Assembly: GCA_013115125.1 (NCBI GenBank)
Contig: JABANN010000002.1
Coordinates: 186,001 to 231,521 of the forward strand
From: Perkinsus olseni
Lineage: Eukaryota
DNA: 45,521 nt
Reading direction: 5' to 3'
The position numbers and the translations under genes were made by a program. Below the pieces are notes generated by a model that was not told the origin of the DNA, ran no database searches, and was given only the letters and a program-made list of their open reading frames with translations. Below are positions 14,619-42,440 of the stretch, one piece after another. Positions within the stretch are counted from its first letter, which is position 1; every line of letters starts with the position of its first letter.

Positions 14619-15681
14619 ATGCTGCCCAACCCGGCACCATCAGCCTTCTTGGTGCCGACTACTACCACAACAACCGTCCAAGCCCATGGTCTGTTAGGTG
14701 AGCCTTCCCTCTTCCTCCGAGACCCAGCGGCGGCCGCAACCTTCCTTCGCTTTAGGCTGGATCTCTTTTATCGTTCTCTTGTTGATCGGCGTTGGTGTGT
14801 TGTACTGGCATAACAAAAGTGACCGCAAAGCGCGGAAGAGCTCTCGGCTGGGGAGCCACTCGACGGTCCGTCGACCGACCAGGGTACTGAACCTTGGCCG
14901 AGATCGAGGGAAGGGTTGCGTGATGCCTGGCTGCTTTAGGTCAGCGTCAGTCGTAGTCTCAGACGAGAAGTGGAGAGGGGGGTCCCACTGCGTAGGTGCC
15001 GGTGCTCTCACTGTTGCACACGAGCGTGCTGGTTATTGCCGCAGTTGTAGCATAAAATTGAGCAAACAATTAAAAGTATCAATCAAAATCTACTTATTGA
15101 ATTCCACTGGAAATATTTTGCCTCGTCTCTGCAGCGATCGGGAGGCCGCCATTGCCACCAGTGATGGTGTCTGGGGACACCTGGTCCGGTCTTCCCTCTG
15201 GGAGGAGGCCCTGGACCTACTCTGAGAGGAAGAGGAGTACGCTATCGGCGGAGAGGGTGAGTTGACTCGGCTTTGTTGCACGATTGAGGTGATGCCGATG
15301 GTTCAGGTGGCTGAGGTTACTGACGCTCTACTGGAAAATAGACTAGGTACTAAGAGGGAAGGGTTTGTATGCTAGTATGTGGTCTGGCGGAGGAATTCAT
15401 GTTCCGTATGGATATGGTCGGTGGTTCGATCCCTGCCCTTTCCTCTTTGTAGGTTCTGACTATTCTTCCACAGCGTCCAACTGGGACAGTCAAAGTGGTG
15501 AGTTCATCCCTCCCCCCTCTTCACCGGTCTATCCACCACACCCGCCGGTCTTGGTACTCCGAATGATGTGTTGCTCTCAGACTCTTCATGGAAGGCAGTG
15601 GTTGGGGACAAGCCTGAAGCGGTAGTACGGGCCACCAGCATGCCCGTCGTGCTAGGTTCGTTGCGTCTCTCCAGGTTGTGA
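14619..15681 (+). CDS. Hypothetical multi-exon membrane protein (exon structure only partly resolved)
   Basis: TM-like segment FALGWISFIVLLLIGVGVLYW and several GT..AG introns (e.g. 15184-15228, 15257-15452). I could not fix all reading phases. Confidence 0.4.
15352..15447 (+). other. Degenerate tRNA-like stem-loop at the 3' end of intron 15257-15452
   Basis: 12-bp terminal stem AAGAGGGAAGGG/CCCTTTCCTCTT, B-box GGTTCGATCCC, D-arm-like GCTAG..CTGGC. The anticodon arm is non-canonical. Confidence 0.35.
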
Positions 15682-19500: not shown

Positions 19501-19888
19501 GACCTTCGGGAAGGACCATTGAATTCTGTGCAGTTAGTTCGAGATCTTTTGACGTCATATATTATTCATCGCAATGCGGTTGTTTGTTGCATCACTTGCA
19601 GAGTGGTCGAGTTGTGTTCAGCAGTCAGTAGCTGCCAGTCACCAAGGGACTTTCCTTATGATCGGCCGGGTGAGTTTTTACTGGTGCAGTGACAACTGGA
19701 ACAGGCTCGGGTTCCCACAGACTCAATCTGGTACTCCTTCCATCCAAACAGCACCATCTCGCACAGTTTCAATCCGTACAGTGATACGTCATACAGTGAC
19801 AGTTCGTACAGTTCCCAGTGATACAGTGTCATTCAGTCCAGTATCCACGGATACAGTGACATGTCGTACCCGACTGATGGGCGACCTG

Positions 19889-20711
19889 AGTGCCAGAACT
19901 AGGCACTGTCACCAGGCACTAGGCACTGTCACCAGTCACCAGGCACTAGGCACTAGGCACTGTCACCAGTCACCAGGCACTAGGCACTGTCACCAGTCAC
20001 CAGGCACTAGGCACTGTCACCAGTCACCAGTCACTAGGCACTGTCACCAGTCACCAGGAACTAGACAGTGTCTAACACTGTCACCAGTCACCAGTCACCA
20101 GGCATGAGACACTGGCGCCAGTCACTGGACACTAGACACTGTCACCAGTCACCAGGCACTGGATACTACATTCAAGACACTGTCTCCGGGCACTAGACAC
20201 TGTCACCAGTGACCAGTCTCCAGGCACTAGACACAGTCACAAGTCACCGGACACTACACACTGTCACCAGGCACTAGACACTAGACACTAGGCACTGGAC
20301 ACTAGGCACTGTCATCAGTCACTAGACCGCGTATCATCGGTAGCATCTTAGCTGTGTAGTGATCCAGTGACAGTGCCTACTAGACACTGGCACGAGTCAC
20401 TAGACACTGTCTAGTGTCTAGTGCCCGGTGACTAGTAACTAGTGACCGGTGACCGGTGACCGGTGACCGGTGACCGGTGACCGGTGACCGGTCACAGTGC
20501 CTAGTGCCTAGTGCCTGGTGACAGTGTCTCGAGTCTAGTATCTAGTGCCCGGTGACAGTGCCTAGTGTCCAGTGCCTGGTGACTGTGTCTAGTCACTAGA
20601 TACAGTCACTAGACTCTAGTGCCTGGTGAGAGTGTCTTGAGTCTGGTATCTAGTGCCTGGTGACTGGTGACACTGTATAGTGCCTGGTGACTGGTGACCG
20701 GTAACAGTGAC
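19889..20711. repeat. Inverted (fold-back) satellite of 6-7-nt subunits
   Basis: Left arm is built from CACTAGG/CACTGT/CACCAGT/CACCAGG; right arm carries the reverse complements. Axis near palindrome CACTAGACA-C-TGTCTAGTG (20398-20416); (GTGACCG)7 at 20442-20490. Confidence 0.95.
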
Positions 20712-24689: not shown

Positions 24690-27290
24690 TTAAGTTTCGA
24701 CGAGTTTCAGCTTGATTGTTGATGTAGTTTTCCTCCCAGAAACGTCATCTCTGCTAGTATCGAACACCAGCGACCATCCTCCGCCTGACTCACGACAAAT
24801 TCGGAACGGACTCGGAGATATGTGAGCAAGTCCTAGAATGTCTCCTAAGATTACCAAATCCAGTGCATGTTCTTCACTTGAAAAGTCAAGTTGCAGGCAG
24901 GTCTCCAGGCAGACCGCTGTGACCTCAGGGAGCGTCATTGGGCATTCAAATCCACGTGTGTCGAAGATGAGCTGAGCTCGACGGTTATGTGTCGGGTAAT
25001 CAGTTCTGATGTTAACCGTAACCTTGTTGACCTGGTCGAGCCCAGTACCGGTGGCCAGGTAAGTTCCATCAGGTATACTCGTCCACTCTTCAGTCGACAC
25101 CACAGCGGGTGCAAGCGAAGAGGAGGCCTCAGCCGAATCAAATAGGGCTTCGACCCACTTGTCGTCCGAACTAGCCTTGGTCTCAGGCCACAGGCTGTCA
25201 AACTCCATTGGCGATAGGAGATCGTCCGCTCCTTTAGTGGTACTTCCCCTGTTTATCTCACGATGATGTTCAGCAGTATTACCCTCGGATTGGATGGACC
25301 CTGCCGAATCTGAGAGCGTCTCAAGCCACTTCTCGTCCAAGAGAGCCTCCGGATCAAGCCAGAGATCGTCGAAGTCGATCGGCAACAGGAGATCGTTCTC
25401 ACTTGGAGTAGAACTTTCTCTGTCCGTCGTATAATTTTGATCGTCGGCACCTCTCCGGGCGGACTCTGGAAATTTTACTGAGGCCTCGGCTGATTGGCCA
25501 GTAGAACCAGAAGTCCGGACATTGAAATTCCGAACGTCAAAGGATGAGGTGGGCCAGTCGGCACTCACATGCTCGCCAGAAGTTAATTTACCTTTTCTGT
25601 GGAACTTCGAAGATCCTTCACCACTCAACAACCGCAGAGATGTCCGATTAGCAACTCTGTCCGAAGGGACGCCGTACTCGCCTTCCCACTCCTCAATCGC
25701 TGCTTTGCGAGGGAAGGCTACACCCGGCTGTGAGTGATCGCCCATCCCGGAGGTCGAACCTCCTTCACCAGTTTCATCTTCACCCCTTCTCGAGTAATCA
25801 CTTTCCGGTAGTGCCAGCCCAGGAACAGGCGACTTATACGACGACTTGGCCGAACCATTGGAGGCATCCGAGCCTTCATCTCTCTTCGCGAGCTTCAGTG
25901 GTCCTCCTCCAGCCTGGAGAGCAGAGGAGCGTTTCCTGGATATCTCCTGCACGTCATCGGCCATGCCCCCACGAGAGCATTCCGATAGGGCTATTCGAAA
26001 GCCGTAAGTAGTAGATTCCCTGTGCCTGTCACGGTTGGTGTTGAGCTGTTTCCCGATGCCAACGATCATTCCGATCTCGGTTTGGCAGAAGACCAGTTGG
26101 GAAGCTACTCGTAACGGCTTTACCAAGCCTAGGCGTCTGTAGAGACCGAGAATGAAATCATTCGCTGTTCCTTTGGGCTCCACGTGGAAGCAATCTGGGA
26201 CCTGTCCTACTCGCAGCGAACCGAATTGCCTCAACAACCTCACATTGCTATCGCTGTATCGCACCAAAACAGCTTCCTTTGGACCATCAATCAAATACCG
26301 AACGGTGGATGACTCGATAGAGAGGACCTCCGCGTAGAAGCTCGCCAGTTGTTTCCCTTCACCATCAGTAACCACCATTCTAAAGTCAGTGAGGCGTGGA
26401 AGCTCCGGACAAATTGTACCATTCTGTTCGACCGCCTTGTACGTCCCCCCAGGGAGACTGTCAGACGTGACAAAATTCATGACCGTACTTCGCCTCTTCT
26501 CGTTGGATCTTAAACTACTTTCCGGTATTGGCAGCTCTGGCGCGGAAGACTTAGGCCAGCCATCGAGGGAACCCGACCTCACCCCGTCCGAAACCTCCTC
26601 ACCTATCTGCGCGAGTGTGAGCGCCCTTCCTGCAGACAGGAACTGGGGCCCCCTTATCGATTTCACCGGGTCGCTATCAGCCCAGCCATCGGATGACGAG
26701 CCGCCGGTTGAGTTGTTTAGTTTAGCTACTCGGAAGCCATACAGAGTGGAGTTCCAGGCGCCCCAGTAGGTGACCTTCCTCCCCATACCAACGATTATTC
26801 CGATCTCGGTTTGGCAAAAGATTAGTTGTGCAGTTAATGGTGGCGACATTGCTAACCCAAGGCGGACGTCTAAATCTAAGAGAAAATCACCTGCTGCGGC
26901 CTTGGGCTCCACATGGAAGCAATTGGGAGACTGACTTATGCGCAGTGAACCGAATTGTCTCAGGGATCTCGCATAACGGTAACCGTACCACACCAACGCT
27001 GCTCTTGTCGGATATCTAATCGGTTCCCGGTGAGCAGGTTGCCCCGTAGAAAGAACCTCGGCATTGAAGCTCGCCAGTAATTGCCCCTCTCCACCATCAG
27101 TAATCACCATCTCGAAGCTGACCAGACGTGAAAGCTCCGGACAGATTGTACCATTCTGTTCAACCGCCTTATACGTCCCTGCAGGAAGACTGTTGGAAGT
27201 GACGAACTTTAAGGTGGGCTCCTTCTTCCTCCCGCCGCTTCCAATCACACGTCGTGAGAAGAACAAATGCACTAGGAGAAAAAGTCTCAT
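24690..27290 (-). CDS. 866-aa hypothetical, probably secreted, internally duplicated protein, intronless
   Basis: Hydrophobic N-terminus; two copies of a domain starting FVTS(N/D)SLP.GTYKAVEQNGTICPEL; two copies of DLL.P..FD.LW....D.KW.E.L.DSA. Confidence 0.85.
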   Translation of the reverse strand: MRLFLLVHLFFSRRVIGSGGRKKEPTLKFVTSNSLPAGTYKAVEQNGTICPELSRLVSFEMVITDGGEGQLLASFNAEVLSTGQPAHREPIRYPTRAALVWYGYRYARSLRQFGSLRISQSPNCFHVEPKAAAGDFLLDLDVRLGLAMSPPLTAQLIFCQTEIGIIVGMGRKVTYWGAWNSTLYGFRVAKLNNSTGGSSSDGWADSDPVKSIRGPQFLSAGRALTLAQIGEEVSDGVRSGSLDGWPKSSAPELPIPESSLRSNEKRRSTVMNFVTSDSLPGGTYKAVEQNGTICPELPRLTDFRMVVTDGEGKQLASFYAEVLSIESSTVRYLIDGPKEAVLVRYSDSNVRLLRQFGSLRVGQVPDCFHVEPKGTANDFILGLYRRLGLVKPLRVASQLVFCQTEIGMIVGIGKQLNTNRDRHRESTTYGFRIALSECSRGGMADDVQEISRKRSSALQAGGGPLKLAKRDEGSDASNGSAKSSYKSPVPGLALPESDYSRRGEDETGEGGSTSGMGDHSQPGVAFPRKAAIEEWEGEYGVPSDRVANRTSLRLLSGEGSSKFHRKGKLTSGEHVSADWPTSSFDVRNFNVRTSGSTGQSAEASVKFPESARRGADDQNYTTDRESSTPSENDLLLPIDFDDLWLDPEALLDEKWLETLSDSAGSIQSEGNTAEHHREINRGSTTKGADDLLSPMEFDSLWPETKASSDDKWVEALFDSAEASSSLAPAVVSTEEWTSIPDGTYLATGTGLDQVNKVTVNIRTDYPTHNRRAQLIFDTRGFECPMTLPEVTAVCLETCLQLDFSSEEHALDLVILGDILGLAHISPSPFRICRESGGGWSLVFDTSRDDVSGRKTTSTIKLKLVET

Positions 27291-36408: not shown

Positions 36409-36552
36409 CAATTTGGCCACCTACCCCCGCTGGGTTTCGCGCTATAACCATCACTTTGCATTGACAACACAGCATGAGAGACTTCTGAGTAATGATGACT
36501 GACAAACTAATAGCTTGCTACTAATGGATGAGGACTCAACAACAACGACACA

Positions 36553-39500
36553 TTAAGAAGACTCAATGGAAGAGCTGCGATCCCCCACGGGATGATACTG
36601 TGGGAATCCCTCAGCCTTGGAAGCATCGTACAGCTTATTGTACTGGGGGTGGAAGGGCGACAGCGCTACAGCGACAAAATCAACCGGGACTGTATCCGTC
36701 GGAACAATGGCCACCGGTATCTGATGGAGAATCTTCTGCTCATCGTGAAGCACCGCACGACCTACCGCTGAGAAAAGCCTGACTGTCACTTTGCGCCCAC
36801 GACGCTCATCATTGGGGTGCTCCCACTCGTAAACTGCCTGGCCGGTCCTATAGGAAACTGACGCAGGCTTGGTTAATAAACTCAGCTCCTCCGTCATGTG
36901 AGGACTTTGCTGCCCCTTGTAGAAAGGCAAAGTTACATTGTAGAATCTGAAGGGCTGATGGAGGCTGCTGTGCATGCGCTGGACTTACACTTGACATTCC
37001 TTGACGAATTTGGGGATATAAACAGACAGGCTATTCTCCTTGATAGCAACAACAGTGCCGGTAGTGTAGTGAAGACTGTCTCTCGTGCGGAGATAAATAC
37101 AGAAGAAAGTGATATCAAACTTCGTCTGAGCTTCACGACTCGACTTCTTCATCTCTGACAACAGCCATCGGGGGAAAACGGAATCACCAAGCATTCTTAC
37201 TGTTGCACTCCTCGCATTGTGCTTCATGCTCCTGCGCCGTCATCTTCAGATTCCTCTTCTCGTTCGGTTGCAACTACACACGAACGATGATGTAAGATTC
37301 GTAAAGTCGGACAGCGGAGGCACAAGCCGGCACAAACGGCTTCGAATGATCTGCCTACTAGGATCTGCAGTTGACGATGTACCATAACATCAGCATAACG
37401 ACGAATGGGAGATGTGAAGTGAGTATAAAGTGGGAAGGCGAGGGCATAGTGAGACACGCTTCGACCATCTGACCCTTGGACGCCGTATCTGCACGACAGC
37501 CATGTTCCGAGCATTCGGCGATCGATTTGAGTAGTTGCTGCTGCTTGCGCGGCAATGTGTAATGCTAACTTACTCCGCAGGGCGCATAGTCTTCATAACC
37601 ATGTTCTCTATTGAGAGGCCTGCCTCAGGCGTGAGCTCCTTCTTGACGTTAGTCAGTGCCTTGAAAACCAGACCGCTATCCCCACCATCACCAGCGCACC
37701 ACACGGTCTTGGGTATACCTGAATTGAGCAGCATAAACAGTAACACCCGAAAAATGGGATTTTGGTGTTACGTAAGTCTTCGAGCAGCAACTTGGTGATC
37801 TTCTCGAAACCTTCCTTGATCGGTCTGTCGTGGTGTCGCAGCACGGCAATCTCTCTCATCTTCTCGTCCTTGTTGTTAGCAATGGCAGTAGCAACACAAC
37901 GGTTGGCAGCCAGCATCAACTGCAGAATAGATAGGGCTGAGCCGGGAATCGAACCCGGGACCTCGCGCACCCGAAGCGCGAATCATACCACTAGACCACA
38001 CAGCCACAATACTAAACAACTATCGCCCCGGGTCCCTCTCCCTCTTCACCTCTTCGATGAGCCAGTGACTCGGCGTGTGCGACTCCAAGCCGTACCCGAT
38101 AGGCAGGTTGGTCTCCGGATCCATCTTAAACAACAGCTTGTGCTTATCGATCTTCACCGAGCCATCCTCAAAGAAGCGATTCACTCGGACCTGACGCCGG
38201 ACAAGCACCAATCAACAACAACCACCAAACAGTTGACCAACTACTTTCTTGCAGACCGCGTAGAGCAGATGAAGATCGCTCTCCACATCCTCCCAAGTAT
38301 GGCCGTCGGTTACGGGCGGCCTGAGGGAGACACACTTCGGGCCTGGCCACCACCCGTCGCAATCGCCTACTGTTGGGCCAGAGGTTTCCCATCAAGGACG
38401 TCCTGAACTTCATCGTAGTTGAATCGACAGCAAGATTTAATAGCCGATTTACAGAACTTCGGACCAGAGGCGCAAGTGAACTGAATGCACATGCGTGAGG
38501 ATCATACCAAAACTCCCCCAAATTATGTACATTATTGCCGTCATCGATGCCAATTATCCTTCCCGTATCAACATTGATTCGGAAAGTGGCCGTGAAGGTG
38601 AGTTTATGCTCAGCCGGGTTCAGACTGCACAGCTTCGCACAGAGCCCTTCCGGCAGCATCGGGAACATCTAAAAAGAAGACACGGAAACTTCGCTCCGCT
38701 GCTATCGTGTGAAGGCCAATAGTGACCGATACTGAAGCCAACGGTGAGATCATGGCCAGCGCACAGCGCTGGCTTCCACAGACCCCACACGGTTGATTTC
38801 GGGGCGCGCGCGAATTCCAGGGATAGCGTCAGATAATCTTCGACGTACCCTGTGGCAAAGATAGACAGACGTACACCTCTTCTGAGCCTCCTGATCCACC
38901 GCTGACCCTGAGCCGAACAAATCAATCCGAGCTATTTTGGATCTTCCTCGCTTCAACCTCAGATATTACCTTGCTTCACATAGTGAGCGACGTCAGCGAT
39001 ATGAACCCCGATCTCAACCGTATTCTCGTCTATCACATCAATGCTGACAGCATCATCCTGCAAGAGATATTCCCTCCAACATCAAGCCATGGTATCATAC
39101 CAGATCTCGAGCTGTCGCGGGGTCCACAGTAAAGATACGCTTCTTCGTGAGATCCCGTCTAGAACCCCCAAGCCGCATCTCTCTTCTGTACTCAGCCTCA
39201 GCATTGGCCACCATCCGGTCCACCTGATCATCGCCTGATTCTCTCACGCTTCGCCACGAATCGACCGGATCCCAACAGGCTCCAGGGTAAGGTGCAAAGG
39301 TCCGTCAGGAGTGAAGTCAGAAATTGCCAAAAATGGTCATCAGAAACGAACGCGTAGAAGACGTTCCAGACCTCATCTTAATGTGAGTACTTATTCCTAC
39401 CGGAAGCTAGGGAAAAAGAGCCGTCCTCACTACAGATGACATCTCGGAGTCCAGGCGAGTGTACAGAGAGAGCCCGGCGGGGTGCGATGAACTTCTATCA

Positions 39501-42440
39501 CGGCAATGACGCTACCCGTTTCGAGCTCTACACGAAGGACAAATTTCGCGAAAAGCTGTGGCTATATGAACAAAGTATGGTTGAGCCTAACGAAGGCGTC
39601 GGACTGTGATCGTAAAAACCAAAGACTATTGCAACTTTCTACCGATCGTATTCTTGTTCTAAGCTAGACGAAGCCAATATAACTTCGCGCGGTTCCTCCT
39701 TGGCATCAGTGCGATGGAAAACTCGTACTACCCGTACTACCTCGTCGTAGACTTGTCGGCTGAAGTCTGCAGCATGGTGCTCGAGATTAGCCTCCTCAAG
39801 ACAAGCCGCCGTCTCTGCAGCCAAGTCCCCAGCACTTCCGAAAGGCTTTCCAGCCAACCTGATATACGCGCATACTCATACCACACCTCTCACAACTCCT
39901 ACCTCCCCAATGGCAACACCGAGTTGGTTCCCCATTTGAGCATCTGCACCGGTATCATCACTCGACCGTTCAGTGGGCCCGGCAGGCGCAGGACACGAGA
40001 GACAACATCATTAATCTACGTTTAACACACCCTTCCTCGTCAACGATCTGGTAGACGAGTGGTATTAGACCCACCTGAATGAGCATCCAAGGCAATCTCT
40101 TATTCATTGGCTTAGCTCGAATGAACTTGTCTCCCGGCTGCACCATGGAGGTGAGGGGATCGGCATCTGAAGCGCAGAACTCAGAAGCGATACATTCATG
40201 GCGGCATCCAGATGCAAATGCCTAGACAAGATACGCTTCATAGTGAAACCGTTACGATACCCAGAATATCTTAGCTCGATCCTAGGTAAGAACGAGAGAG
40301 GAAGATTCACTCACACCATCCGTGTCGCGTACGAAGGCAACCGTTCGCCAAAACAAGTACACGTCTATGCGGCAACACGGCATCTTCCACTGTGTGACGA
40401 GCATGTGCCGGAAAAGACTTCCGAGCTCCCCATACGGCTAGCTCAACCCCCTGTTATCATTACCAATGGCACCATCCAGAGGATCTCCGCCCCCTCCTGT
40501 CTTGTTAGCTTCTAACGTGCATACAAACCTATCATGACATCCCTCACTAGCATGACAACAGCAGCAGCGGGCCCTCCTACGGATGCTTATTCCAGCACTT
40601 CTTCGACACGTACACCACCACTGCCGTCCGGAAGCACTCGGTCGTTCTTTCTTTCGCGCCGTCATCAGACTCTTCCGAGCTCTCATGCATAACGGCGTCC
40701 TCGTCACGGCCCTCACACTTCGCCAAACGTCTGAGTCGCGCGCCACGAAATTACAGATCGGTTGAAGTGCTCTCCATTAGATAATAAACCCCGTAGACCA
40801 TGCGGTGCCAACACGAAAAAGGATATTAACAACTGCCGGGATCGAACCCGGGACCTCGAAACCTACTTGATATCGGCTCGAGTGGGCACGAGATCGTCCT
40901 CGTCACTGGATGAGGATGATGTACTGGAGCTTCGCCCTCGAGCGTTGCCCTTCTTATTCTTATTAAAATCCTTGAATTCGGGTGCGATACGGATCTGCAT
41001 ACCGCTCGTCTTCGATACCTGTTAAACGAGAGCTCAGGCAGTAGAAATCCGAAGTTTCGGTACATTTTCTCACTATGAGCATAACTTCTTGGGGGCAATT
41101 TTATGCTACCATACCGACCACAACTAACTGGTGCAAATGCCAACAATTGAAGCGAACAGAGGGGCGAGCATAGCGAATCGCCGACGGAAAGCAAACTGCA
41201 TTTGGTGATTTCGATGATATTCTCGCAGTGACTGATCGTCGAATGGTTTTGGGATAGCATTAACAATGATAAAGGGACCCAATTCGCCTTACCCATTGCT
41301 CCAGAGGGTTCAAACGCACCACTACTTCGTCTCCATGTATGGCTCTGTTGCGGTCGAACTTCCCTTTTATGAGAATGTCTACATTACTCTTACTGAGAAG
41401 GACATCACTCAGGAGTTATTCACAATTCGCCTTCGGCCTCCCAAAGCTTCCAATGAGCCCAGACGCTGTAGAAAACCCCCGCCGGGAATGCCGTGCCCTT
41501 TCTACTCATCCACGTCTCTGGTTCGATCCGGTCTGACTCGTACAAATGCGTCGTTCGGGGTCTGTTGAACTACCTGATACGAGACGCGTTACTCGAACCC
41601 GATACTTCCCGGTAGTCAAACATGATCCTTGACCACCAGCCCACTTCCCCATACTACTTGAAGAAGGCCCGAAATCAAGGACCCGTCTGCTAGACCTGCT
41701 TCAGCTTCCTCCCTGGTGATATACTCCGGGTACGGTGGACGTGACATATCCTCCAACAATCGGGAGATAATACAATTACTAAATCCGATACCAAAACATC
41801 CGCAACTCCTCCATCAGGTGGGAAGATATTGGACACTCCTGAGTCGCCTTCACGATTCCGAACGAAAAATAGAAAAATACGGAATACAGATGCACAGCAC
41901 CGTACCGTCAACAAGTGAACCACTGAGAAATTATGTGTAATGGTAGTATCGTCCTTCGAGTAAAGACGAGCCCCCTCACTACTGCTCCCCCTAGAACGTT
42001 TTATCCTCACTGAACACAACAATACCGACTACGTAAACTGTTCTTAGATGCTTCCCTTGATACAGTTGAATTACCATGTGTCTCATCAGGCGCCCTGGAT
42101 CGACCTGTCCTCTGTCGTCGCTTTCGGTCCAACGGAGGACCTGGACTCCCCGCAGACTAGTAAGCATCGGGAAGGTTGGTTGGTGAACGATTACTGTGCC
42201 GGCCACTGGCCGGCGGCCAGCCGTCAAAAAAACGACGGCGTCACCGTCGTCAAACGCGTAAATCTGCCCGGAAAGTCTCCATCATCATCATCATCATCAT
42301 CCTCCGGGGTATTTTGAACCAGGGCCCTCGCGAAGATAGACCTAACTCTTTCCCCACTGCACCATTATTCGTGTTAAACTTCGAAAAACGTATGAGCTCC
42401 ACAAGCCTGAACGCAGCATACGATTGATACTCGCCTCCAT
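36553..42440 (-). CDS. DIS3L2: DIS3-like exonuclease 2 (RNase II/RNB family), many exons; 5' end uncertain
   Basis: [60 protein letters not shown] (DIS3L2-type), [54 protein letters not shown]. Confidence 0.92.
37934..38005 (-). tRNA. tRNA-Pro(CGG), nested sense in DIS3L2 intron 37920-38049
   Basis: GGCTGTG TG GTCTAGTGGTATGATT CGCGC TT CGG GT GCGCG AGGTC CCGGG TTCGATT CCCGG CTCAGCC C: 72 nt, full cloverleaf, one acceptor-stem mismatch. Confidence 0.96.
40828..40866 (-). pseudogene. tRNA 3'-half relic starting at the 5' splice site of DIS3L2 intron 40731-40866
   Basis: GTAGG TTTCG AGGTC CCGGG TTCGAT CCCGG CAGTTGT: variable loop plus T-arm (one base short), with a T5 run shortly downstream. 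Confidence 0.6.

Follow-up and report, generated by a model that had tools for sequence, protein, structure and literature searches.

The DIS3L2-type host gene

The window analysed here, i.e. the whole 45,521-nt stretch of Perkinsus olseni DNA, carries on its minus strand a gene of the DIS3L2 type, one intron of which contains a tRNA-Pro(CGG) gene (Table 1). The start codon of the host gene lies at 41747-41745 and its stop codon at 36553-36555, and the gene contains 22 cis-splice joints. A spliced-leader acceptor is located near 41780, where loose ends of RNA contigs correspond to the 3' portion of the spliced leader of Perkinsus, the sequence of which has been described (PMC3101222). The closest proteins are annotated as DIS3-like and belong to P. 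olseni (98% identity on exon) and P. chesapeaki (82%).

The domain composition was taken from P0001, a near-identical protein of P. olseni, rather than from a spliced translation of the window; in tblastn, the window exons were mostly 84-100% identical to P0001. This protein has an RNB domain (E 1.4e-89) and a CSD2 domain (E 7.8e-10), together with a weak CSD1 match (21 bits for a cut-off of 22), and the domain search gave no match to a PIN domain. P0001 therefore displays the combination expected of DIS3L2, namely RNB and N-terminal cold-shock domains without PIN. Among solved structures, those of DIS3L2 were matched at 286, 277, 275, 250 and 248 bits, while DIS3L1 reached 190 bits, RRP44/DIS3 179 bits and below, and RNase R 134 bits. 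Judged by these bit scores against solved structures, and without a tree, the host protein appears nearer to DIS3L2 than to DIS3, DIS3L1 or RNase R. When the P. olseni protein was compared with metagenome contigs, 40 pattern matches were obtained, of which tblastn confirmed none. In other eukaryotes, DIS3L2 degrades uridylated Pol III transcripts. The link that could be drawn between the tRNA-Pro and these known substrates is a single coincidence at one locus.

Table 1. Features of the host gene and of its tRNA-bearing intron (positions in the window).
Feature	Position	Strand	Evidence
DIS3L2-type host gene	36553..41780	-	RNA contigs, domain and structure matches, tblastn
Upstream host exon (RNB domain), end ...HWLIEE	38050..38188	-	RNA contig pieces, tblastn of P0001
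GT..AG spliceosomal intron, 130 nt, phase 0, LIEE/LMLAAN	37920..38049	-	Sequence and RNA contigs
Intron 5' part, 44 nt, donor GTGAAG	38006..38049	-	Sequence
tRNA-Pro(CGG), 72 nt including discriminator C, CCA not encoded	37934..38005	-	ARAGORN, Rfam RF00005
Predicted A-box region, TGGTCTAGTGG	37988-37998	-	Read from sequence and Rfam alignment
Anticodon CGG	37971-37973	-	ARAGORN position 33
Predicted B box, GGTTCGATTCC	37945-37955	-	Pattern match, 0 mismatches to GGTTCGANTCC
Intron 3' part, 14 nt, TATCTATTCTGCAG, T-rich without T4, acceptor CAG	37920..37933	-	Sequence
Downstream host exon, start LMLAAN	37769..37919	-	RNA contig pieces; P0001 98% identical
First T4+ run (T5), +180, within next intron 37716-37768	37750..37754	-	Script; joint 37715->37769
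tRNA fragment (variable loop and T arm), 24/25 nt identical to tRNA-Pro	40834..40858	-	blastn-short

The tRNA-Pro(CGG) gene

ARAGORN detected a single tRNA in the window, a tRNA-Pro with anticodon CGG, and a rerun at the default threshold with tRNA introns permitted returned the same lone gene. It matched Rfam RF00005 over model positions 1-71 of 71 with 54.3 bits (E 4.7e-09; gathering score 29), and thus forms a full-length cloverleaf by this model. The initial annotation, which had described an intact 72-nt tRNA-Pro(CGG) lying sense to its host, was confirmed by both programs. In the Rfam alignment, the proline anticodon lies in the 7-nt loop UUCGGGU, and two non-standard pairs are seen, one in the acceptor stem (U6-U66) and one in the D stem (U13-U21). 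The tRNA-Pro is far beyond chance. No further tRNA was found in the window by ARAGORN at its default threshold; the 62 calls obtained at a lowered threshold, nearly all of which include introns of an implausible length (hundreds of nt), were regarded as noise. An Rfam search of the window with E up to 10 added only a weak mascRNA overlap with the tRNA-Pro (20.8 bits, E 9.1) and unrelated weak matches. The exact 72-nt tRNA had no match among metagenome contigs.

By comparison with the consensus motifs of the A and B boxes, the gene contains both internal promoter elements of a Pol III type-2 unit. The two boxes are no independent evidence of a promoter, since they are also structural parts of every tRNA. 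B-box-like motifs with at most one mismatch occurred eight times in the window for 3.48 expected, a marginal excess, as eight was also reached by 4 of 100 shuffles.

The host intron and its splicing

In all four RNA runs, which provided assembled contigs of ordinary RNA libraries, 37919 is joined to 38050, so that 130 nt with CT..AC ends on the plus strand are skipped. The upstream exon ends with ...CTC ATC GAA GAG at 38050, the intron GT and AG occupy 38049-38048 and 37921-37920, and the following exon opens with TTG ATG CTG GCT GCC AAC. By its ends and by its removal in RNA, this is a U2-type GT-AG intron. The sequence and all the runs thus bear out the earlier description of a 130-nt intron that splits LIEE/LMLAAN and in which 14 nt separate the end of the tRNA from the exon. 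Of the 130 nt, 72 belong to the tRNA, 44 precede it and 14 (TATCTATTCTGCAG) follow it. Candidate branch adenosines, predicted from the sequence, are 37928 and 37932 in the 3' part and 37938 in the acceptor strand of the tRNA. With such tight packing, the branch-point region and the 3' end of the tRNA would share bases.

Positions 38025-38035 are able to pair with the variable loop and the 5' strand of the T stem. In the minimum-energy fold of the whole intron, an 11-bp helix formed with this segment replaces the cloverleaf, with a z-score of only -1.27; 25 of 200 shuffles folded equally well. The tRNA-Pro folded alone gave a z-score of -0.15 and a prediction lacking the D arm; thermodynamic folding is little informative for tRNAs.

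The spliced form was the dominant contig in each of the four runs. Only X6 contained intron-bearing contigs, and their depth over the tRNA was about 24 (29 minus 4.8 for a variant contig), compared to 12.7-26.5 over four other introns; this comparison is weak evidence because contig depths are crude. The initial annotation had also proposed that tRNA processing competes with splicing. The dominance of the spliced form in 4/4 runs, and more weakly the unexceptional depth in X6, leave this proposal unsupported. As the intron is efficiently spliced, the host gene is not visibly disturbed by the tRNA. In X7, X8 and X10, four of 30 depth bins were uncovered, all of them within long introns. X8 had zero depth at 37966, the single tabulated place inside the tRNA. 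Nothing firm follows from these gaps in cover.

The 3' flank of the tRNA

On the tRNA strand, the first run of four or more T (T4+) is a T5 found at offset +180 in the next intron, as had been annotated, and a single T3 run occurs before it. The tRNA-Pro therefore lacks the T4+ run within a few tens of nt that would be expected past a Pol III gene. On the minus strand of the window, 118 T4+ runs were counted in 45,521 nt (2.6 per kb), and by a Poisson estimate a random 179-nt stretch would be devoid of them in about 63% of cases. The lack of a T-run is no more than background. Since it is absent at the background rate, the 3' flank has no sign of a selected terminator or of selected avoidance. 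Splicing does not explain the absence, because a T4 could at the same time serve as polypyrimidine tract.

The terminator is reported to lie within 15 bp in over 97% of yeast tRNA genes (PMC3141230). In humans, the distance to the first T4 exceeds 50 bp for about 12% of bona fide tRNA genes; Pol III nevertheless transcribes these genes and terminates at degenerate T-rich elements or reads through (PMC3141230). The lack of a nearby T4 thus does not exclude transcription by Pol III, in view of these human genes.

Other copies and fragments of the tRNA

Contigs from X7 and X10 match the window up to the 5' end of the tRNA at 38005 and then continue into at least 255 letters of unrelated sequence. 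Over the covered part of the tRNA, they have no listed deviation from the window. There is at least one further identical copy of the tRNA-Pro(CGG) at another locus, which means that the sequence is maintained in more than one copy. A longer RNA contig contains this second copy, with a donor-like CAG/GTGAG 21 nt upstream of it, and the two runs in which the copy occurs show no other intron coverage. In X6, one contig coincides with the tRNA as far as 37941 and has a T6 about 10 nt beyond the end of its own tRNA; it may come from another organism. A different X6 contig, possibly also from another organism, contains a variant tRNA (C>T at 37966) with a purine-rich flank and no T-run in about 28 nt.

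In another intron of the host gene (40731-40866), a piece of tRNA is also present at the 5' end. It includes an 18-nt identity (E 3.6e-5 in blastn-short), and its local alignment score was reached by none of 1000 shuffles. As Rfam gave no tRNA match in this region, it is regarded as a fragment only. A T5 lies at 40816-40820, about 8 nt past its would-be discriminator. Together with the T6 of the X6 contig, this suggests that T-runs near the 3' ends of tRNAs may be in use in this organism, and against such a background the tRNA-Pro at 37934-38005 would stand out. The variant X6 contig without a T-run points in the opposite direction.

Three other resemblances were discarded. The first cis-intron (41569-41652) was not accepted as a decayed copy of the tRNA intron: its local alignment was reached by 1 of 1000 shuffles, a 141-nt search gave no Rfam tRNA, and its score of 35 against the tRNA is matched by window tiles unrelated to the host gene (37, 37, 34, 33 and 32) and by shuffled tiles (up to 36). 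Homology of the 44-nt 5' flank to the fragment and trailer of intron 40731-40866 was not accepted, as 267 of 2000 shuffles reached the score under stricter scoring; the value of 1 of 2000 came from a soft scoring picked after the match had been seen. A D-arm-like stretch after the T5 of the same intron was rejected (85-146 of 1000 shuffles).

Possible origin and expression of the intronic tRNA

The tRNA, its intron and the splicing of the latter, the lack of a T-run and the existence of a second copy are observed; from them we infer which polymerase makes the tRNA, where transcription ends and how the precursor is processed. The reading that we put forward, and to which we would give an even chance, is that of an ordinary Pol III tRNA-Pro(CGG) gene that lies within an intron and has a leaky or distant termination. 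A member of a multi-copy nuclear tRNA-Pro(CGG) family would have reached the short intron of the DIS3L2-type gene by insertion or duplication; in an intron-rich genome, with 22 cis-introns in the host gene, some tRNA copies are bound to land in introns by chance. Most likely, Pol III would transcribe the tRNA independently from the internal A and B boxes, starting inside the 44-nt upstream part of the intron. It might then stop inefficiently in the interrupted T-rich tract directly past the tRNA (TATCTATTCT), which by analogy with human genes is a candidate degenerate T-rich element for Perkinsus Pol III, or it might continue across the next exon as far as the T5 at +180. RNase P and RNase Z would then trim the precursor. 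Since the intron is transcribed before being spliced out, the tRNA sequence is present in the host pre-mRNA too, and some mature tRNA may derive from the excised intron as a by-product rather than by a designed route. The intact full-length cloverleaf with its two U-U mismatches, the perfect B box, the identical copy at another locus and the efficient splicing of the host intron favour this nested Pol III gene, as does, by analogy, the commonness in C. elegans of tRNA genes within introns. The absence of T4+ for 180 nt, compared to the yeast terminators within 15 bp, speaks against it, and so may the T-runs close to the tRNA fragment and to the tRNA end of the X6 contig as well as the lower Pol III occupancy of same-strand intronic tRNAs in C. 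elegans.

An alternative that we regard as improbable is that the host pre-mRNA is the main precursor, the excised intron being debranched and the cloverleaf trimmed by RNase P and RNase Z in a snoRNA-like manner; a Pol III terminator would not be needed and none would have been kept. The tRNA is indeed in sense orientation, on the same minus strand as its host, inside a real intron that is efficiently spliced in four of four runs, and it is followed by 180 nt without T4+. The tRNA-Sec of T. brucei, likewise a spliced-leader organism, provides a precedent, the DIS3L2-type mRNA being trans-spliced as well. The internal promoter of the tRNA-Pro is intact, unlike the defective B box of the trypanosome gene and contrary to what is expected of an intron-hosted RNA, which should have no promoter of its own. 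Moreover, the likely branch points at 37928, 37932 and 37938 fall at or inside the 3' end of the tRNA, so that its folding and the binding of U2 would be mutually exclusive and the lariat would have to be debranched beforehand, and the cloverleaf is not the minimum-energy structure of the whole intron. The second identical copy bears on this route in both directions: its location inside a longer RNA in X7 and X10, with at least 255 nt upstream and 21 nt past CAG/GTGAG, is in its favour, but the copy is still joined to its upstream sequence in assembled RNA, which argues against fast cleavage of an embedded tRNA by RNase P. Human intronic look-alikes of mitochondrial type were reported not to be processed as bona fide tRNAs (PMC7722341). 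Rather unlikely too, in our opinion, is a silent copy, i.e. a recent duplicate from a large family that is intact, poorly expressed owing to the lack of a terminator and to Pol II traffic, and inconsequential. The existence of at least one further identical copy, the very large tRNA gene families of P. marinus (PMC3706591) and the background-like 3' flank are consistent with it, as are the score of 54.3 bits with two U-U mismatches and the decayed fragment in another intron, which indicates that tRNA sequences do land in introns of this gene and decay. The identity to the second copy over the covered part, and the intactness of the cloverleaf and of both boxes, argue against it.

We consider it very improbable that the tRNA acts as a cis element, its fold either aiding recognition of the 3' splice site or diverting pre-mRNA to cleavage by RNase P and RNase Z. 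In the latter form, DIS3L2 output would respond to tRNA-processing capacity, a notion to which the activity of DIS3L2 on uridylated Pol III transcripts lends some appeal. The distance of 14 nt between the tRNA and the 3' splice site, which brings about the overlap with the likely branch-point region, is in line with such a role, and in human reporters cloverleaf intronic look-alikes raised splicing efficiency in a position-dependent manner (PMC7722341). Nevertheless, spliced mRNA is dominant in all four runs, the unspliced signal of X6 is no higher than for other introns, and the link to the host gene is a single coincidence at one locus.

Comparison with known systems

In C. elegans, 44-47% of tRNA genes are reported to be intronic and bound by Pol III; they are intronic no more often than predicted by chance, only 56% of them are on the host strand, and those on the same strand have a lower Pol III occupancy than those on the opposite strand (PMC4999229). 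Mirtron-like release from pre-mRNA is considered in that study as possible in theory (Sagi et al. 2016, PMC4999229). The Perkinsus case differs in that it concerns an alveolate parasite, an intron of 130 nt, a distance of 14 nt to the acceptor and no T4+ for 180 nt. The tRNA-Sec of T. brucei was identified by experiment as a Pol II product of a polycistron, cut out of a long precursor, and intron-encoded tRNAs were explicitly raised by the authors as further Pol II candidates (Aeby et al. 2010, PMC2943599). Both cases involve a sense tRNA embedded in a Pol II unit of an organism with leader trans-splicing; the trypanosome gene is described as lying between coding regions and having a deviant B box, whereas the tRNA-Pro lies in a cis-spliced intron and has a perfect B box (PMC2943599). 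The tRNA-Pro also resembles human remote-terminator tRNA genes, which have no T4 within 50 bp and for which degenerate T-rich stops or long 3' trailers are described, with the difference that the latter are transcribed by mammalian Pol III (Orioli et al. 2011, PMC3141230). It has an intronic cloverleaf in common with the look-alikes of Hoser et al. (2020, PMC7722341), for which an effect on splicing that depends on the position relative to the splice sites is reported; those are mitochondrial-type pseudo-tRNAs in long human introns, whereas the tRNA-Pro is of canonical cytosolic type. No paper on intronic tRNA genes in Perkinsus was found, as judged by titles and abstract openings.

As in the case of intronic snoRNAs and mirtrons, a small structured sense RNA without a promoter-independent terminator is located in a short intron and might be released after splicing. 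Box C/D and H/ACA snoRNAs and mirtrons, as intron-hosted small RNAs, lack a dedicated promoter, and their maturation is carried out by exonucleases or Dicer. Unlike them, the tRNA-Pro contains the whole of a Pol III type-2 promoter, and its maturation would require RNase P and RNase Z.

As a nested Pol III gene, the tRNA-Pro would be an alveolate example of a known arrangement with extreme packing. Nested tRNA genes being already known in other organisms, the Perkinsus case is a modest curiosity until tRNA production is measured. If made from the intron, it would be the first case in which a natural cis-spliced intron is shown to give rise to a standard elongator tRNA, a possibility raised in print in 2010 (PMC2943599) and 2016 (PMC4999229) and, in the portions of these papers at hand, not demonstrated. 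The lineage would then be that of the perkinsids, next to the dinoflagellates, in which transcription is otherwise unusual, and the DIS3L2 host would invite the idea that the quality control of tRNAs and their supply are linked by feedback.

A broader possibility, which we consider decidedly unlikely, is that Perkinsus has a class of short sense introns bearing tRNAs that are produced via Pol II and splicing without a Pol III terminator. The intron at 37920-38049 and the second copy after GTGAG would be two loci pointing to such a class. In a bolder form, the tRNA-bearing intron may be a mobile unit that seeds new introns, which would explain why a tRNA fragment lies directly at the donor of intron 40731-40866.

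The host gene and its transcripts

Among 13 candidates, two proteins named DIS3-like matched the exon 3' of the tRNA-bearing intron: one from Perkinsus olseni at 98% identity and one from P. chesapeaki at 82%. The P. olseni protein, which is matched along its length by exons of the window, contains RNB and cold-shock domains without a PIN domain, and among solved structures it scores best with DIS3L2 (286 bits, versus 190 for DIS3L1 and 179 for RRP44). The assignment of the host to DIS3L2 in the initial annotation is thus supported through this ortholog, and the DIS3L2-type label, drawn from the domains and scores of the ortholog, is sound.

Contigs from four public runs (X6, X7, X8 and X10) were aligned to 36500-41800. 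A spliced contig with the joint 37919-38050 was present in all four runs; exactly 130 nt were skipped, bounded by CT..AC as read on the plus strand, and the RNA contigs hold 22 such joints in the host gene. In three runs, 4 of 30 depth bins were without cover, each within long introns, so these runs behave as RNA. X6 alone also contained low-depth intron contigs, four of which have depths of 12.7 to 26.5, versus 327 for the spliced contig. Its depth across the tRNA, crude as contig depths are, is about 24 once a variant contig is subtracted, so retention of the tRNA intron is not visibly above that of the others. The tRNA therefore sits in a spliceosomal intron, as had been proposed, and the RNA evidence strengthens the confirmed observation of a nested tRNA. 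Beyond 41780, the X7 and X8 contigs, once reverse-complemented, reproduce the 3' portion of PmaSL1, a published spliced leader of Perkinsus (PMC3101222, in excerpt), which indicates that the DIS3L2-type mRNA is trans-spliced.

Structure of the tRNA gene and intron

ARAGORN detected a single tRNA in the whole window, and an intron-permitting run returned the same gene alone. The Rfam tRNA model matched it over its full length (54.3 bits, threshold 29), with two U-U mismatches, in the acceptor stem and the D stem. The A-box region is readable from the sequence, the B-box consensus is GGTTCGANTCC, and CCA is not encoded. On the minus strand, the upstream exon terminates with CTC ATC GAA GAG at 38050 and the downstream exon starts with TTG ATG CTG GCT GCC AAC; the intron leaves 44 nt 5' and 14 nt 3' of the tRNA. 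ARAGORN, Rfam, sequence reading and a T-run count showed that the tRNA, intron and T-run coordinates of the initial annotation were all right.

Features of the host gene and its tRNA sequences
Feature	Position	Strand	Remark
Trans-splice acceptor AG of host mRNA	41769-41780	minus	about 33 nt upstream of ATG
3' tRNA piece (variable loop, T arm, would-be acceptor strand), then T5	40816-40866	minus	begins at donor site of intron 40731-40866
tRNA-bearing intron	GT at 38049 to AG at 37920	minus	130 nt; sequence reading
tRNA-Pro, anticodon CGG	37934-38005	minus	ARAGORN
B box	37945-37955	minus	0 mismatches to consensus
Candidate branch A	37938	minus	within tRNA acceptor strand
Candidate branch A	37932	minus	2 nt beyond tRNA
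Candidate branch A	37928	minus	in 14-nt 3' intron part

In the other host introns, candidate branch adenosines lie about 14-24 nt from the acceptor, with no consensus derivable. The branch zone of the tRNA intron would overlap the last tRNA bases, so that cloverleaf formation and branch-site recognition would be mutually exclusive on each RNA molecule.

The nearest T4+ run (at least four consecutive T) 3' of the tRNA is a T5 at 37754-37750, 180 nt on and within the next intron, so the claim that a nearby terminator is absent holds. How unusual this absence is would depend on the 3' flanks typical of tRNA genes in Perkinsus. T-run evidence at three other tRNA-like sequences is mutually discordant. 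The tRNA fragment in intron 40731-40866 has a T5 about 8 nt beyond the would-be tRNA end; an X6 contig that is the same as the tRNA as far as 37941 carries a T6 some 10 nt beyond its own end; the variant-copy X6 contig has a purine-rich flank of about 28 nt without a T-run. Both X6 contigs, whose flanks were read as reverse complements, are of putative Perkinsus origin. The 3' ends of Perkinsus spliced-leader RNA fall in poly-T tracts (PMC3101222, in excerpt). Two metagenome scans, with the tRNA and with the P. olseni protein, gave no confirmed match.

A second copy and other tRNA-derived sequences

As to whether this is the sole Pro(CGG) gene, the answer is no. Contigs of X7 and X10 (depths 97 and 7.8) match the tRNA to its 5' end at 38005, with zero differences from the window listed, and then continue with at least 255 letters absent from it. 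Since these two runs lack cover in the long host introns, the second copy appears to lie within a longer RNA. On its tRNA strand, CAG/GTGAG stands 21 nt upstream, within the adjoining 30 letters, and looks like a putative splice donor; the chance of such a motif, chosen after being seen, is roughly 1% per 30-nt stretch.

At its start, intron 40731-40866 shares 24 of 25 nt with the tRNA variable loop and T arm. The core of this fragment is an 18-nt exact match (E 3.6e-5; 0 of 1000 shuffles reached the alignment), and Rfam reported no tRNA there. An X6 contig matches the piece to 40834 and then diverges, so a true tRNA gene carrying this T arm probably lies elsewhere. Two further likenesses did not hold: the first cis-intron (41569-41652) as a full-length, weak likeness of the tRNA intron, and the tRNA 5' flank as a likeness of the fragment trailer. 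Weak alignments over most of the tRNA, with D-loop-like and T-loop-like parts, occur at 15356-15445 (plus), 42310-42370 (minus) and 26122-26321 (minus); they score about as the best shuffled tiles and could reflect either the decay of former tRNA copies or chance similarity.

Possible origins of the tRNA

What makes the locus of interest is its very tight packing, the absent terminator, the identity of its host and the hint that a second locus may be intron-like. The most likely reading, to which we give an even chance, is that a normal tRNA gene of Pol III lies in one of the introns of an intron-dense, tRNA-rich genome: Pol III would transcribe it as usual inside the host intron and, without a nearby T4+ run, termination would be leaky or distant. 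Nested intronic tRNA genes, taken as analogues, are already known in other organisms. Introns harbour 44-47% of the tRNA genes of C. elegans, a share not above chance expectation; 56% of these genes are co-oriented with the host, and Pol III binds them, less so in that orientation (PMC4999229, in excerpt). About 12% of bona fide human tRNA genes have their first T4 more than 50 bp off, and at genes with a remote T4, Pol III either reads through or terminates at degenerate T-rich elements (PMC3141230, in excerpt). The tRNA gene families of P. marinus are very large, and transposons insert into them (PMC3706591, in excerpt). Titles and abstract openings yielded no paper on intronic tRNA genes in Perkinsus.

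Production of the tRNA from the host intron is unlikely. Pre-mRNA release is termed theoretically possible in C. elegans (PMC4999229, in excerpt); in T. brucei, Pol II makes tRNA-Sec from genes placed within one of its polycistrons, worm and fly intron-encoded tRNAs being named as further candidates (PMC2943599, in excerpt). Given the exclusion between cloverleaf and branch site, release of the tRNA from the excised intron would first require debranching. When the whole intron is folded to minimum energy, 38025-38035 in the 5' flank pairs with the T-stem region and the cloverleaf is not formed; shuffled sequences fold as well (z -1.27). A silent tRNA copy is equally doubtful. T4+ density on the minus strand is 2.6 per kb and, by our estimate, about 63% of random 179-nt stretches would be T4+-free, so the 3' flank resembles unselected sequence; the Rfam match covers the full tRNA. 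Quite improbable is an action of the tRNA in cis on host splicing, of the kind by which human intronic cloverleaf look-alikes aid splicing (PMC7722341, in excerpt).

Other features of the window

Positions 19791-20709 hold a satellite-like array whose units are based on 7 nt, with periods of 7, 13, 21, 27, 30, 34 and 48. Its orientation flips near 20400-20440, creating a long palindrome in which Rfam finds weak miRNA-like hairpins. On the minus strand, about 450 nt upstream of the host spliced-leader acceptor, a GC-rich hairpin followed by T7 (42226-42273) might mark where a small RNA gene, or else the gene upstream, ends; its sole Rfam match is a weak one to a bacterial sRNA (E 0.43). A short (GAT)n run lies directly upstream of it (42288-42310, minus).
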